A DNA stretch of 64,000 nucleotides, taken from NCBI GenBank assembly GCA_017510245.1, contig JAFWNQ010000003.1, forward strand, positions 1,799-65,798, read 5' to 3'. This DNA comes from Clostridia bacterium. GTDB taxonomy: Bacteria > Bacillota > Clostridia > TANB77 > CAG-508. Positions 9,460 through 15,110 of the stretch are shown one piece after another. Position numbers and translations under genes: made by a program. The notes under the pieces were generated by a model, which searched no databases, had not been told where the DNA came from, and saw only the letters and a list, made by a program, of their open reading frames with translations. How positions within the stretch are numbered: the first letter of the stretch is position 1; the number at the start of each line of letters is the position of its first letter.

Positions 9460-9534
9460 TGGGGTGTAGCCAAGCGGTAAGGCAGGGGACTCTGACTCCT
9501 CGATGCGTGGGTTCGAATCCTACCACCCCAACCA
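9460..9534 (+). tRNA. tRNA-Gln (anticodon CTG)
   Basis: TGGGGTG/CACCCCA acceptor stem, AGCCAAGCGGTAAGGC D arm, CT-CTG-AC loop, GTTCGAATC T loop, encoded CCA. Confidence 0.97.
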
Positions 9535-10807: not shown

Positions 10808-12124
10808 ATGAAAGAAATTCCTATTAAAAGCATAAAAGCAATGCAAGTTTTTGACTCCAGGGGTAATCCAACAGTACAAGTAACAGTATCATTATTAGAT
10901 GGAACTCAAGGAGTTGCTATGGTGCCATCCGGAGCATCTACAGGTAAATATGAAGCGATAGAGCTAAGAGATAATAATTATAGAGAGTATAATGGAAAAG
11001 GAGTAAGAAGAGCTGTTGAAAATATAAATAAAAAACTACAAAAATCACTAATAGGTATGAATGCCTTAAATCAAGAAAGAATAGACAATATAATAATTGA
11101 ACTAGATGGAACAGAAAACAAATCTAGGTTTGGTGCAAATAGTATACTAGGAATATCATTGGCTACTGCTAGAGCAGCTGCTAATTATTTAAATGAACCT
11201 CTATACAGATATATAGGTGGAATTAGTGGAAATATAATACCTACTCCAATGATGAACATACTAAATGGGGGACTACATGCAGGGAATAATATAAATATAC
11301 AAGAATTTATGATAATGCCAATTGGAGTAAGAAGTTTTGAAGAGTGCATGCAAATATGTGTTGAAATATATCAAGTTTTAAAAGAATTATTAAAGCAGAA
11401 AAATATATCTACTTCAGTTGGAGATGAAGGAGGATTTGCACCTAAATTAAAATTAAAAGAGAAAGAGAAAAAAAGAAATGGCAAGATTGAAAAGACTGAT
11501 GAAATAGCAATAGAGTTAATTATAGATGCGATAAATCAAGCTGGATTTAAAGCTGGAAGAGATGTTGCTTTAGCTTTAGATGTTGCTGCTAGCGAAATGA
11601 GAGAAGCTGCAAAAACAATAGAAAAGGAAGGATATTACTTTTGGAAAACAGATGAATATAAAACAAAAGATGAGATGATTGATTATATAGAAAATCTTGC
11701 TTCAAAATATCCAATTCGTTCTATTGAAGATCCTTTAGGAGAAGATGACTGGAAGGCATGGTCAGAACTAACCAAAAGACTTGGCTCTAAAATTCAACTT
11801 GTAGGAGATGACTTGTTTGTTACTAATAAAAGAAGATTACAAAGAGGAATAGATGAAAAAGTGGCTAATTCAATATTAATCAAACCAAACCAAATAGGAA
11901 CTCTTACAGAAACAATAGAAACTATAAAACTAGCTAGAAAAAATGGCTATAGAACTATTATTTCTCATAGGTCAGGTGAAACAGAAGATACATTTATAGC
12001 TGATTTGGCAGTAGCTGTTAATGCTGGACAAATTAAGGCAGGAGCACCATGCAGGAGTGAAAGAGTCGCTAAGTATAATAGATTATTAAACATAGAAAAA
12101 GAGCTAAAAAAAAGAAAGGAATAA
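10808..12124 (+). CDS. eno: Enolase
   Basis: DSRGNPTV, PSGASTG, GDEGGF, GDDLF, LIKPNQIG, SHRSGET. Confidence 0.96.
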   Translation: MKEIPIKSIKAMQVFDSRGNPTVQVTVSLLDGTQGVAMVPSGASTGKYEAIELRDNNYREYNGKGVRRAVENINKKLQKSLIGMNALNQERIDNIIIELDGTENKSRFGANSILGISLATARAAANYLNEPLYRYIGGISGNIIPTPMMNILNGGLHAGNNINIQEFMIMPIGVRSFEECMQICVEIYQVLKELLKQKNISTSVGDEGGFAPKLKLKEKEKKRNGKIEKTDEIAIELIIDAINQAGFKAGRDVALALDVAASEMREAAKTIEKEGYYFWKTDEYKTKDEMIDYIENLASKYPIRSIEDPLGEDDWKAWSELTKRLGSKIQLVGDDLFVTNKRRLQRGIDEKVANSILIKPNQIGTLTETIETIKLARKNGYRTIISHRSGETEDTFIADLAVAVNAGQIKAGAPCRSERVAKYNRLLNIEKELKKRKE

Positions 12125-12220
12125 TTCTATTCAAAAAAATTCTTGAAATGTTTTATTTTTATTGCTACAACTTGTACAGATATTAGTTAATCCAATGATA
12201 ATAAGGGGAGAATAAGAGTA

Positions 12221-13591
12221 ATGAGAAACAAAGGAATAACATTAGTTGCACTAGTAGTAACTATTATTGTGCTTTTAATACTAGCGGGTATAACAATTAA
12301 CATGGTGCTAAAGGATAATGGAATAATAGAAAGAACAAAAGAAGCAGCAGAAGTATATAAAAAAGCTGAACAAAATGATGTGAATGCACTTAAAGAACTA
12401 GCAGAACATATTAAGAATAAAACAAGAAATGACGATGATGATTATGATGAAGAAACTGTTAGAAAGGAAGTAGAAGATGAATTAACAACAGTGGGGATTT
12501 CACCAACAGGTGTATCAGGACAAGAACCGCAGATTTCTAATCCAGATCAAATTGAAAATCCCAATATTCATATTGAAACCACTCAAAATACTGTTAATAG
12601 TGTAATTAACCAGCAAATAAACGCAGGGTTTATTGGAAACAATCTTTACAGAGGACTGCTTAATTCATATTTGATGAAGTATTCTAGTCGCGTAATTTAT
12701 GAATTTACTCCAAATTCAATTAAAGATTCTCCATGGGACACTCTTTTATACAAACCTGAGATAATTGAAGATGACATATCGGTAGTTGACGGTGAAGAAG
12801 AACTAAATACAATTTTGGAGGATAATAGAGGGTGGTTAACTATATTTAATTCACCTATTAACTATCCGATAATGCAAGGAGCAGAAAACTTGTATTATGC
12901 TTTTCATAATTTATATGGAGATTCATCAATAACAGGAGCTATTTATATGGATGCAAGGAATTCTCCTGATTTTAGTGATAGATATAATATGATTTATGGA
13001 CATAATATAAGTAATGGAACAATGTTGGGAAGTCTAAATGATTATAGGAATAGAACATATTACAACGAACATAAAAATGGCATAATAGTTGGAAAAAACG
13101 ATGTATATGACTTAAGTGCTTTTGCAGTTGCGGAAACAAATTCTAATGAAACACATGTATATGGTGTTGGAGACCGAATAAAACGATTAAAGAATTTTCT
13201 AAAAAGCGATACAGAGAATAGTGACAAAATAACTTTTTTACAATATGATGAAGAAGAAGCGCAATCTGCTCAAAGAATTCTTGCATTATCAACCTGCATG
13301 AATAATTATAATGGAACAAAAGATCGTCTAGTTGTATTCTTCAAAATGACGACTCGTAGCGTAATTAGTCTGAATGTAGAAGGATATGAAGGAGAATATG
13401 ATGGAAATGAGTATTCTATAAATGTAGATGTAATGCCATATGATGTATCAATTGAATACAGTGTTGATGGAGGAAAAACATGGACAGATGAACAGCCTTC
13501 ATTAACTGAAAGAGGAACTCTAGATATTATCGTACGTGCAACAAGAGGAGAAGTGCAAGAACAGAAATCTGCACAAATAAAAATAAACTAA
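12221..13591 (+). CDS. Pilin-like leader fused to class B sortase and a C-terminal YDG/MBG-like domain
   Basis: KG|ITLVALVVTIIVLLILAG leader; YPIMQG, GAIYMD, IYGHN, GTMLGSL, LSTC, DRLVV; GYEGEYDG tail. Confidence 0.8.
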   Translation: MRNKGITLVALVVTIIVLLILAGITINMVLKDNGIIERTKEAAEVYKKAEQNDVNALKELAEHIKNKTRNDDDDYDEETVRKEVEDELTTVGISPTGVSGQEPQISNPDQIENPNIHIETTQNTVNSVINQQINAGFIGNNLYRGLLNSYLMKYSSRVIYEFTPNSIKDSPWDTLLYKPEIIEDDISVVDGEEELNTILEDNRGWLTIFNSPINYPIMQGAENLYYAFHNLYGDSSITGAIYMDARNSPDFSDRYNMIYGHNISNGTMLGSLNDYRNRTYYNEHKNGIIVGKNDVYDLSAFAVAETNSNETHVYGVGDRIKRLKNFLKSDTENSDKITFLQYDEEEAQSAQRILALSTCMNNYNGTKDRLVVFFKMTTRSVISLNVEGYEGEYDGNEYSINVDVMPYDVSIEYSVDGGKTWTDEQPSLTERGTLDIIVRATRGEVQEQKSAQIKIN

Positions 13592-13733
13592 CTAAATTAA
13601 TAAAAAACTCTTACTTTAATACTAAAAAACTTGAAGTAAGAGTTTTTATTATATTTCCTAAAAATGGTAATTGAATTGACATACTATTATAATAATGTTA
13701 TAATGGTAAACATAAAACTGAAAGGAATAAAAG

Positions 13734-15110
13734 ATGAAAGTTAAATGCGTAACACTTGGATGTAAGACAAATAAATATGAATCAAATGCAATGGAACAAA
13801 GCTTTAAAAAACATGGATATGAAATAGTGAGTGAGAAAGATGAAGTTCCAGATATATATATTGTTAATACTTGTAGTGTAACAAATGTTGCAGAAAGAAA
13901 ATCAAGACAAATGCTTAGAAAAGTAAAAGAAGTGAATCCACAAGCGATTGTTATTGCATGTGGCTGTTATGTACAAGTCGCAAAAGAAGAAATTGAAAAA
14001 ATTGATGAAGTAGACATTGTGCTTGGTATCAATGAAAAAAACAATATTGTTAATATAGTTGAAGAATACATTCAAAACAAAAATAAAGTTGTAAAAGTTG
14101 AAGACGTAATGCATGAAAGCAGTTTTCATGATTTTGGAACAACAACATATACAGAACAGACACGAGCAGTAGTGAAAATACAAGACGGATGTGACAGATT
14201 TTGTACATATTGCATAATTCCTTATGCAAGAGGGAAAGTAAGAAGCAGAGAGCCTCAAAGTATTATAGAAGAAATAAAAAAAATATCTGAAAAAGGTCTA
14301 AAAGAAGTTATCATTACAGGAATACATATTGCCTCTTATGGAAAAGACTTCAATAATGAAAAAACGTTAGAATACAGAAAGTTATATAATTATAAAAATG
14401 AATTTGAAAAATTTAATCCTAAAGATGACCTACATTCTGGAGGTTTTAGATTAATTGAATTATTAGAACAAATAAACAAAATAGAAGGAATAGAAAGAAT
14501 TAGGTTAGGATCTATAGAACCTAAATTAATAAATAAAGAATGGGTAATGAGAGTATCAAAACTAAAAAAGATATGCCATCATTTCCATTTATCACTTCAA
14601 AGTGGATGTGATGAAACTTTGATGAGAATGAATAGGAGATATTCAACTGAAGAGTTTGCAGAATCAGTAAAAATACTTAGAAAGTATTATGATGACGTAA
14701 TATTAACAACAGATGTAATAGTCGGATTTCCAGGTGAAACAAATGAAGAATTTAACACTACATATGAATTTTTAAAAAGAATTAAATTTTATAAAATGCA
14801 TGTATTTAAATACTCATTAAGAAGAGGAACAAAAGCTAAAAAAATGCCAAACCAAGTTGATGGAAAGATTAAAGAAATTAGAAGCAAAAAATTGATAGAA
14901 CTTTCAAACATAAATCAAAAGAATTATGATCAATTAATGATTGGAAAAACAGTGAAAGTTCTTTTTGAAGAAAGAGAAGGAGAATACTATAAAGGACATA
15001 CAGAAAATTATATAATGATTAGAGCTAAAACAGATAGAAATTTAGAAAACAAAATACTTGATGTGAAAATTAAAGAAATGAGTAATAATGAATTAATTGT
15101 AATTTTATAA
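13734..15110 (+). CDS. mtaB: tRNA t6A37 methylthiotransferase (radical SAM)
   Basis: TLGCKTN, NTCSVT, KIQDGCDRFCTYCIIP, LQSGCD, TRAM-like tail. Confidence 0.92.
   Translation: MKVKCVTLGCKTNKYESNAMEQSFKKHGYEIVSEKDEVPDIYIVNTCSVTNVAERKSRQMLRKVKEVNPQAIVIACGCYVQVAKEEIEKIDEVDIVLGINEKNNIVNIVEEYIQNKNKVVKVEDVMHESSFHDFGTTTYTEQTRAVVKIQDGCDRFCTYCIIPYARGKVRSREPQSIIEEIKKISEKGLKEVIITGIHIASYGKDFNNEKTLEYRKLYNYKNEFEKFNPKDDLHSGGFRLIELLEQINKIEGIERIRLGSIEPKLINKEWVMRVSKLKKICHHFHLSLQSGCDETLMRMNRRYSTEEFAESVKILRKYYDDVILTTDVIVGFPGETNEEFNTTYEFLKRIKFYKMHVFKYSLRRGTKAKKMPNQVDGKIKEIRSKKLIELSNINQKNYDQLMIGKTVKVLFEEREGEYYKGHTENYIMIRAKTDRNLENKILDVKIKEMSNNELIVIL

Follow-up and report, generated by a model that had tools for sequence, protein, structure and literature searches.

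We analysed a 64,000-nucleotide stretch of DNA from an uncultured gut bacterium of the Clostridia, order TANB77 (GenBank assembly GCA_017510245.1, contig JAFWNQ010000003.1, positions 1,799 to 65,798 of the forward strand; hereafter the window, in whose numbering positions are given) and in it one open reading frame (ORF) of 456 amino acids (aa) plus stop, 12221-13591, which lies on the plus strand with all of its features described below. Starting from an ATG, this ORF encodes a pilin-like carrier, a linker with a sorting motif, a class B sortase and an immunoglobulin (Ig)-like unit. An earlier note, made from the letters of the DNA, had described a pilin-type leader, a stalk, a SrtB domain and a C-terminal domain in a single chain, and this architecture was borne out by profile searches and by structure prediction with AlphaFold2 (AF2). 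The gene is real and intact, and its product is a modular type-IV-pilin-like protein with a pilus-type class B sortase as passenger. From the sequence comparisons, there is about an even chance that the protein is a substrate-enzyme fusion, whose sortase would cut its own stalk at Thr96|Gly97 and transfer or release it.

Domains, pilus machinery and locus

The protein begins with the basic leader MRNKG (12221-12235), ending in Gly(-1), and alignment with paralogues places a putative prepilin-peptidase site at G5|I6. The leader is followed by ITLVALVVTIIVLLILAG, with Ala at +5 and no Glu at that position; a short charged leader ending in Gly and then about 20 hydrophobic residues is the pattern of a pilin. 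The hydrophobic helix I6-G23 and its conserved amphipathic continuation to about aa 66 form the carrier module (12236-12418), homologous to the helix of the pilin in the genome's pilus locus, and an acidic/basic helical stalk of about aa 67-92 (12419-12496) comes next. AF2 predicted stalk helices at aa 5-32, 35-50, 54-67 and 77-90, the last with a predicted local distance difference test (pLDDT) score of ~60. The pilin-like helix (aa 6-24; Kyte-Doolittle 3.16) is the only hydrophobic segment of the protein, and in the AF2 model it is followed by the helical stalk and a disordered linker instead of a globular pilin head.

The mature N-terminus is identical to that of the 74-aa locus pilin (G000:C1:45432-45656, where G000 is the genome that holds the window) at 19 of 20 and 28 of 40 residues. 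The 26 paralogues compared, with leaders 5-14 aa long, all have I, T and L at +1 to +3; at +5, 21 have Ala and none has Glu, the locus pilin included. A MAFFT alignment of 20 paralogues left G(-1), I, T, L, V13 and T14 invariant. This N-terminus is widespread: 27 of the 32 matches of a regular-expression scan of the genome are ORFs that share it (the other 5 are unrelated), and a carrier-module profile found it at 34 places in the genome. The profile also has 1-75 matches in each of 23 genus relatives out of 24, and of 16 genomes drawn from four other families of the order 12 were matched, spread over three of these families. The passengers of the 20 paralogues scanned were LRR_5 in five, DUF285 in two and Flg_new in two, with one further match below the cut-off for each of the last two, and no family was recognized in eight; the passengers that were recognized are adhesin-like. 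Two carrier paralogues (L035:1-1347 and L042:1-1422) matched Hint / Hom_end_hint below the Pfam cut-off (E 2e-4 to 3e-3), possibly representing self-processing modules on the same pilin stalk. No C-terminal sorting signal was found in 27 carrier paralogues (e.g. L028, L030-L046). When the full-length protein was searched against a database, 2691 matches were obtained, nearly all of the 120 listed covering 11-29% of the query, and all five that were retrieved share the leader. By these alignments the first ~60 residues were shown to be this lineage's pilin helix. The leader is thus a pilin-type signal for this organism, as the earlier note had it; it is not special to this protein, since ~34 ORFs share it.

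The genome (1.24 Mb in 26 contigs, 82% complete, 28.9% G+C) has one type IV pilus locus, which runs from three genes in the place of pilM/N/O through the 74-aa pilin, a pilD-like gene and two small pilin-like genes to pilB, pilT and pilC. The three genes in the pilM/N/O place gave no family matches. PilB (TIGR02538, 2.1e-120), PilT (TIGR01420, 5.3e-92) and GspF/PilC (6.2e-58) were matched, all below the equivalog cut-offs, and the genome's T2SSE and T2SSF matches exceed the Pfam cut-offs. Two pilD-like genes were detected (L008:5733-6575 and L009:4647-5378). The one in the pilus locus matched N-terminal A24_N_bact only (9e-31), with no GxGD-type motif seen by eye. The other lies on a different contig and encodes a canonical prepilin peptidase (Peptidase_A24, 59.5 bits) in which both Asp motifs were seen by eye. 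This canonical gene lies 3 kb from a sortase gene. The presence of pilB, pilT, pilC and two pilD-like genes supports the earlier note. In each of the five genus relatives checked, pilB is preceded on its own strand, at a distance of 2.2-2.4 kb, by a small carrier-module ORF. Elsewhere in the genome a 665-aa ORF (L004; G000:C2:19115-22582) has a weak T2SSE match (29.2 bits) and could encode the ATPase of a second, Tad-like pilus system. The accessible part of a paper on TANB77 pilins deals with a Tad-like cluster, a different system from the locus described here (PMC11680825).

The class B sortase domain (aa 189-379; 12785-13357) was delimited by profiles, PDB matches, alignment, AF2 and Foldseek. 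Catalytic His261 in IYGHN (13001-13003) and Cys359 in LSTC (13295-13297) align with those of solved SrtB structures, and together with Arg369 in DRLVV (13325-13327) they are invariant in an alignment of 76 sequences, as are Y226, G239 and T358; the triad is intact and its members are where the earlier note had placed them. The Pfam Sortase family (PF04203) scored 33 bits against a cut-off of 26.6, and the NCBIfam class B sortase model TIGR03064 gave E 1.6e-37 and 129.1 bits, below its equivalog cut-off of 153.75, with the first 58 model positions unmatched. In the PDB, 15 distinct sequences were matched at E <= 0.01, and each is a sortase B entry or a SrtB-like chain listed under a generic name; the best are 3psq (5.4e-23) and 4y4q (8.8e-22). 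In the AF2 model, residues 88-120 are disordered and two further helices (122-134 and 138-162) precede the sortase, which is predicted at pLDDT >90 over about aa 200-380. Foldseek ranks 1-19 of this model are all sortase B, among them S. aureus SrtB (4lfd, E 1.2e-16) and Spy0129 (3psq, template modelling score 0.87). The sortase fold and an intact His/Cys/Arg triad are present, as judged from sequence and model, and the activity is a predicted one.

The C-terminal unit (about aa 383-456; 13367-13588) is Ig-like, of the form YDG...EYSVDGGKTWT, with beta strands predicted by AF2 at pLDDT 50-61, and corresponds to the first unit of the C-terminal extension found in the sortase's relatives. It is 39-44% identical to a repeat unit of the proteins P0002 and P0003 and matches Pfam CHB_HEX_C below the cut-off (E 0.062). 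The relative P0277 carries a unit of this type directly after the sortase, alternating with units labelled PF18676, which we take to be the MBG domain, and our unit is therefore an Ig-like 'YDG...DGGxTW' unit and not MBG proper. The earlier note's YDG/MBG-like Ig domain accordingly survives as an Ig-like YDG unit and gives way, in its MBG part, to this CHB_HEX_C-like assignment.

A Shine-Dalgarno-like GGGGAG, read from the sequence, lies 10 nt 5' of the ATG (12205-12210), and the ORF is followed by a terminator-like hairpin with a U-run (13598-13651; -17.8 kcal/mol, z -7.0, none of 200 shuffles equally stable). A consensus terminator scan found no terminator 3' of the ORF, having missed this hairpin because it is AT-rich and has a long loop. 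A promoter match of 12/12 for the next gene downstream lies at 13676-13704. The flanking genes, named by eye, are of the housekeeping kind: an enolase-like gene upstream (10808-12124) and a MiaB/MtaB-like gene downstream (13734-15110), with no pilin or signal-peptidase-like gene adjoining. Enolase-like and MtaB-like genes are directly adjacent in the relative G421, so that the gene represents a 1.5-kb insertion. The G+C fraction is 0.30-0.32 in the gene and 0.29-0.31 in the flanks, with no sign in it of recent transfer.

Logan contigs from runs of three further studies match the gene with 0 differences: X7 covers 12100-13009, beginning at the end of the enolase-like gene and continuing across leader and linker into the sortase, X8 spans 12114-12813, and X6 covers 12136-13332 in overlapping pieces. 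As these contigs cross the junctions unchanged, the fusion is not an assembly artefact. Gut metagenome runs of three studies contain the stretch at a high word share. In a bovine gut run (X12) only the flanks were found (12100-12240 and 13489-13700; 1-3 differences), with unlike sequence inward from both, a pattern that could come from a related strain with a different gene at the site. The window also holds a tRNA-Gln (CTG) at 9460-9534 on the plus strand, where a 56-aa ORF on the opposite strand is spurious.

Sortase family, former anchor and sorting motif

An exhaustive search with aa 171-379 returned 12030 proteins at E <= 0.001, 114 of them at E <= 1e-30. Over the sortase domain, the 150 best representatives share 32-52% identity with the query, in most cases 40-49%. 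Nearly every N-terminus that was read is a plain hydrophobic anchor (...LLSGLLAAVLILYSGYVLYD...), and the C-termini are long extensions of up to ~2000 aa. A large uncharacterised family from gut and rumen Clostridia (P0123-P0270, loci L047-L065) combines a plain anchor, a class B sortase and Ig/MBG repeats; in P0123-P0270 the extension closes either with a second membrane region (...LTEDMRLPMVLIDRWTPLM...) or with ...TPLGLG...GDCFE.

In the query there is no hydrophobic anchor directly before the sortase domain. A MAFFT alignment sets the anchor of the relatives against aa 138-163, IGNNLYRGLLNSYLMKYSSRVIYEFT (12632-12709), which AF2 predicts as a helix (138-162) at a pLDDT of ~84 and which we take as the remnant of a former anchor. 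Its best 18-residue Kyte-Doolittle mean is 0.15, compared to a median of 2.18 in 72 relatives. This loss of hydrophobicity is what the new topology requires, as everything beyond the pilin helix would lie outside the cell. The sortase was shown to descend from a plain-anchored family encoded in islets of pilin, signal-peptidase-like and sortase genes.

Three relatives share the absence of an anchor. P0122 (353 aa) has a diverged pilin-like leader, recognised by eye, and the same build as the query at 44% overall identity, so that the fusion is not the one-off that the earlier note had allowed for. P0137 and P0221 consist of Ig-like heads, an ISPTG-type motif and the sortase, and no signal peptide or hydrophobic segment was found in either (best 19-residue hydrophobicity ~1.5). 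A maximum-likelihood tree of 76 sequences, whose bootstrap was not fully converged, united the query, P0122, P0137 and P0221 in one group (bootstrap 100, Shimodaira-Hasegawa-like approximate likelihood-ratio test 95) nested in the anchored family, with the query and P0122 as sisters (99/85). P0155 and P0229, picked out by regular expression as further pilin-leader sortases, proved by eye to have ordinary anchors after long cytoplasmic heads.

The gene is rare, and P0122 is the one other sequence found with this leader. A search of 400 further genomes from the order, of which 368 are of high quality, did not detect the clade-specific region, and the 24 genus relatives held nothing closer than an ordinary SrtB of ~250 aa. 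A profile of the clade region matched, among longer proteins, only the four members and the plain-anchored P0277, and none of eight matches in a word-index search over aa 95-385 had a pilin leader. The family was found at 15 loci in GTDB species genomes, where all ten N-termini read are plain anchors, and at four loci in JGI metagenomes, all with plain anchors. No relatives were found among 183 pattern matches in viral contigs, and a search of the ESM Atlas by structure returned ordinary sortase clusters only.

The relatives' loci point to the motif that the family would recognize. Same-strand pilin-like genes with a C-terminal xxPTG signal lie upstream of the sortase at 11 of 19 loci (9 of 15 from genomes, 2 of 4 from metagenomes). 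These islet proteins are 350-720 aa long; after the motif comes a V, I or L residue, then a hydrophobic segment and finally a tail of basic residues. The motif is LISPTG at four loci, VISPTG, AISPTG, AVSPTG and TVSPTG at one each, IIPTG and TIPTG at one each, and APPTG together with PTPTG at one, which puts the form [IV]-S-P-T-G at 8 of the 11 motif-bearing loci. DUF7601 was matched in seven of eight islet pilin-like proteins scanned (six above the cut-off), some have local matches to streptococcal pilus proteins, and one has a sub-threshold match to the NCBIfam 'QVPTGV class sortase B sorting domain'. The gene between the pilin-like genes and the sortase gene matched Peptidase_S26 in all five cases scanned.

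The same motif stands in the query's own chain. I93-S-P-T96-G97-V98 (12497-12514), with the proposed cut at T96|G97, corresponds to the family's cognate motif and lies in the disordered linker. The core I-[S/T]-P-T-G-[V/I]-x-G is present in each of the four anchor-less proteins, some 40-70 residues before the former anchor, and identity in the linker-motif region is 27-38% among them and 38% between the query and P0122. The chance expectation of the motif per 100-aa linker is 7e-5, and among the 1264 ORFs of at least 100 aa in the genome ISPTG occurs once, in the query. AF2 models of the whole protein and of aa 85-385 both placed the motif region at pLDDT <50 and undocked from the active site, a result of the modelling that we regard as neutral.

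Seven sortase-domain ORFs were found in the genome, and sorting signals in its other proteins include IPQTG, NPKTG and SPKTE. Its main sorting motif is IPQTG, IPKTG or IPRTG, and within the window an ordinary sortase gene stands next to the gene of a 304-aa protein with an IPQTG signal (86-445 and 675-1589, both on the minus strand). Neither a DUF7601 gene nor a QVPTGV-class signal was found in the genome; for DUF7601 the control genomes were silent too.

Proposed self-processing and competing explanations

The earlier note had seen no substrate for the enzyme and had looked to host or neighbouring proteins for its target. The first view overlooked the family sorting motif in the protein's own linker, and for the same reason the second yields to another target: with that motif in place, the likeliest one is the protein's own stalk. 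Insertion of prepilins with the helix as a signal-anchor is established. The query would be inserted in this way, N-in/C-out, and prepilin peptidase would remove MRNKG, two steps that probably both take place. Cys359, acting in cis or from a neighbouring copy, could then attack the Thr96-Gly97 bond and form a thioester with the stalk (aa 6-96), a step to which we give about an even chance. The thioester might be resolved by an amine, passing the 91-aa stalk to a lysine of another protein, as happens with the related streptococcal pilus sortases, or to a cell-wall precursor, or alternatively by water, which would shed the enzyme and leave a pilin of ~91 aa. In either case the enzyme would be a single-purpose, self-directed ligase or releaser and not a general cross-linker. 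That the protein enters a pilus fibre is more doubtful.

Several observations weigh against self-processing. The conservation of the motif is that of four sequences only, and the motif in the linker is without the hydrophobic stretch and charged tail of ordinary substrates. That it is specific for this sortase we infer from the neighbouring genes and from structures with no more than 24-29% identity. As the genome is 82% complete, a separate substrate could be encoded in the part that is missing, and the blank for DUF7601 counts for little because the controls were silent. Glu at +5 is normally needed for the assembly of type IV pilins, and the query has Ala. Its match to Pfam N_methyl (PF07963) is below the cut-off (E 0.057; 13.5 bits vs 21.2), compared with 16.1-16.5 bits for the paralogues and for the locus pilin; with Ala at +5 and this score, cleavage by the peptidase and entry into a fibre are steps that we infer. 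No RNA runs were listed among the sequencing runs containing the gene. Lastly, Spy0129, a sortase of the same kind, was not made to work in vitro according to the accessible text of its description (PMC3019223).

Some of these points would equally suit a plain tethered sortase, whose pilin-like helix, cleaved or uncleaved, is just the anchor commonly used by this lineage for exported proteins, which would remain in the membrane on a long stalk and process other proteins as sortases ordinarily do, and whose ISPTG is left over from the fusion. Ala at +5 and the sub-threshold N_methyl score agree with this explanation, as do the ~34 ORFs that use the same N-terminus for unrelated passengers (LRR_5, DUF285, Flg_new) and can therefore hardly all be fibre subunits, and the genome has candidate substrates in its IPQTG, NPKTG and SPKTE proteins. 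The family's own substrates, however, use ISPTG and not IPQTG, and a canonical SrtB of 248 aa and five other sortases are already present for the genome's other substrates. A mere leftover would also be expected to drift, whereas the motif has been kept between the query and P0122 in a region of low identity. We consider a tethered enzyme of this sort rather unlikely.

The earlier note's own proposal, in which the sortase is displayed on a type IV (pseudo)pilus and, as a modular pilin, acts on other proteins, would likewise deny the linker ISPTG a role as substrate. In its favour are the carrier, which is the lineage's pilin helix, the presence of the pilus machine, and the fact that the closest solved sortases join proteins to lysines and not to lipid II. 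Modular pilins with grafted modules are established and thought to sit at the pilus tip, as the accessible text of a survey states (PMC8179133). Display leaves unexplained, however, why ISPTG[VI] was retained in a disordered linker by all four clade members, two of which (P0137 and P0221) have no pilin leader, and apart from the enzyme itself no ORF of the genome was found with the family motif. We regard it as unlikely.

Rarity speaks for an inactive relic, formed by chance recombination that put a foreign sortase behind the 5' end of a resident pilin-carrier gene: the clade was absent from the 400 genomes of the order and the 24 genus relatives, and the gene is inserted between genes that adjoin in G421. 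Such a relic would not be expected to keep all six family-invariant residues, to lose the hydrophobicity of its former anchor just as the new topology requires, to share its build with a sister 44% identical overall, to recur unchanged in runs of three further studies or to match its flanks in G+C, and we hold it to be very improbable. That an assembler, misled by the 34 copies of the 5' module, joined a pilin-leader gene to a sortase gene is rejected, as contigs X6, X7 and X8 cross the junctions with 0 differences and P0122 has the same build.

If the sortase does cut its own stalk, then in the query and P0122 sortase chemistry might attach a type IV pilin-like subunit covalently, by its Thr96, either to the cell wall or to a lysine of another surface protein, and so bridge the two kinds of pilus of Gram-positive bacteria. 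The four-member clade of the query, P0122, P0137 and P0221 might, equally tentatively, comprise the first natural substrate-sortase fusions, each spent on its own N-terminal part. Should the Hint-like paralogues carry out a similar C-terminal transfer, a 'pilin stalk plus self-processing ligase' would be a theme of the lineage.

Relation to known systems

As described, sortases are enzymes anchored in the membrane whose substrates are separate proteins, and type IV pili are regarded as a system unrelated to sortase pili. In the query, a single chain unites a type IV pilin helix, a sortase-pilus motif and a matching sortase, and it bears signs of adaptation in a former anchor made soluble and a motif conserved in a disordered linker. 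The earlier note knew of no description of this architecture, and we likewise found none in print: a literature search gave no match to the leader strings and no sortase combined with a prepilin, and neither a pilin-leader sortase nor a natural sortase carrying its own motif was found described.

The closest known enzymes are Spy0129 of Streptococcus pyogenes (3PSQ) and the pneumococcal PI-2 sortase B (4Y4Q), which are the best PDB sequence matches of the query, with the same fold and triad at 25-28% identity. In the accessible text of the respective papers, the motifs that terminate substrates of the Spy0129-type pilus are EVPTG, VPPTG or QVPTG, their Thr being linked to a lysine of the following pilin (PMC3019223), and the PI-2 substrate ends in VTPTG (PMC3178606), so that Pro directly precedes Thr-Gly, as it does in the motif of the query's family. 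The same texts show the FCT and PI-2 islets to consist of pilin, signal-peptidase-like and sortase genes (PMC3019223, PMC3178606), an arrangement also found in the query's relatives. The Spy0129 and PI-2 enzymes differ in having a plain anchor and separate pilin substrates with a full sorting signal, whereas the query has a type-IV-pilin-like helix as anchor, a degenerate former anchor and the motif in its own chain. In contrast to the FCT and PI-2 islets, the query gene has no pilin or signal-peptidase-like neighbour, yet a cognate xxPTG is present within the protein.

The second comparison is with modular pilins such as PilB and PilC of Streptococcus sanguinis, in which, as in the query, leader and helix carry a grafted module (PMC8179133, accessible text). 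The query differs from these in having the helix only, without a globular head, and Ala rather than Glu at +5. By the search criterion stated in the accessible text for modular pilins (IPR012902/N_methyl; PMC8179133) the query is below the cut-off, while leader and helix are present. A sortase is absent from the 264 architectures tabulated there, as far as the accessible material shows (PMC8179133; checked by name, by PF04203 and by three InterPro numbers). Even if self-processing should prove wrong, the query is the first sortase passenger that we could find among modular pilin-like proteins. The passengers of its paralogues, LRR_5, DUF285 and Flg_new, presumably occur, by InterPro number, among the pilins of Dataset S1 of that survey (PMC8179133).

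With the plain-anchored gut and rumen family the query shares 32-52% identity (best 150 representatives), an alignable anchor region and an Ig-like unit after the sortase. That family differs in its hydrophobic anchor, its long extensions and its separate pilin genes ending in ISPTG, and the query is without all three. Engineered self-cleaving sortase fusion tags exist, according to the accessible text of one report (PMC2901362), and like the query they have enzyme and motif in one chain, but they are man-made and include no pilin part. If self-processing is true, the query would be a natural single-chain, self-ligating sortase of interest to protein engineering, a new means of fixing or shedding pilin-like subunits, and a directly testable case in a small-genome gut lineage that uses the pilin helix as a display carrier in about 30-75 ORFs of each genome. 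The parts, a modular pilin and a pilus-type class B sortase, are themselves of known kinds; it is their mode of action that would then be new.

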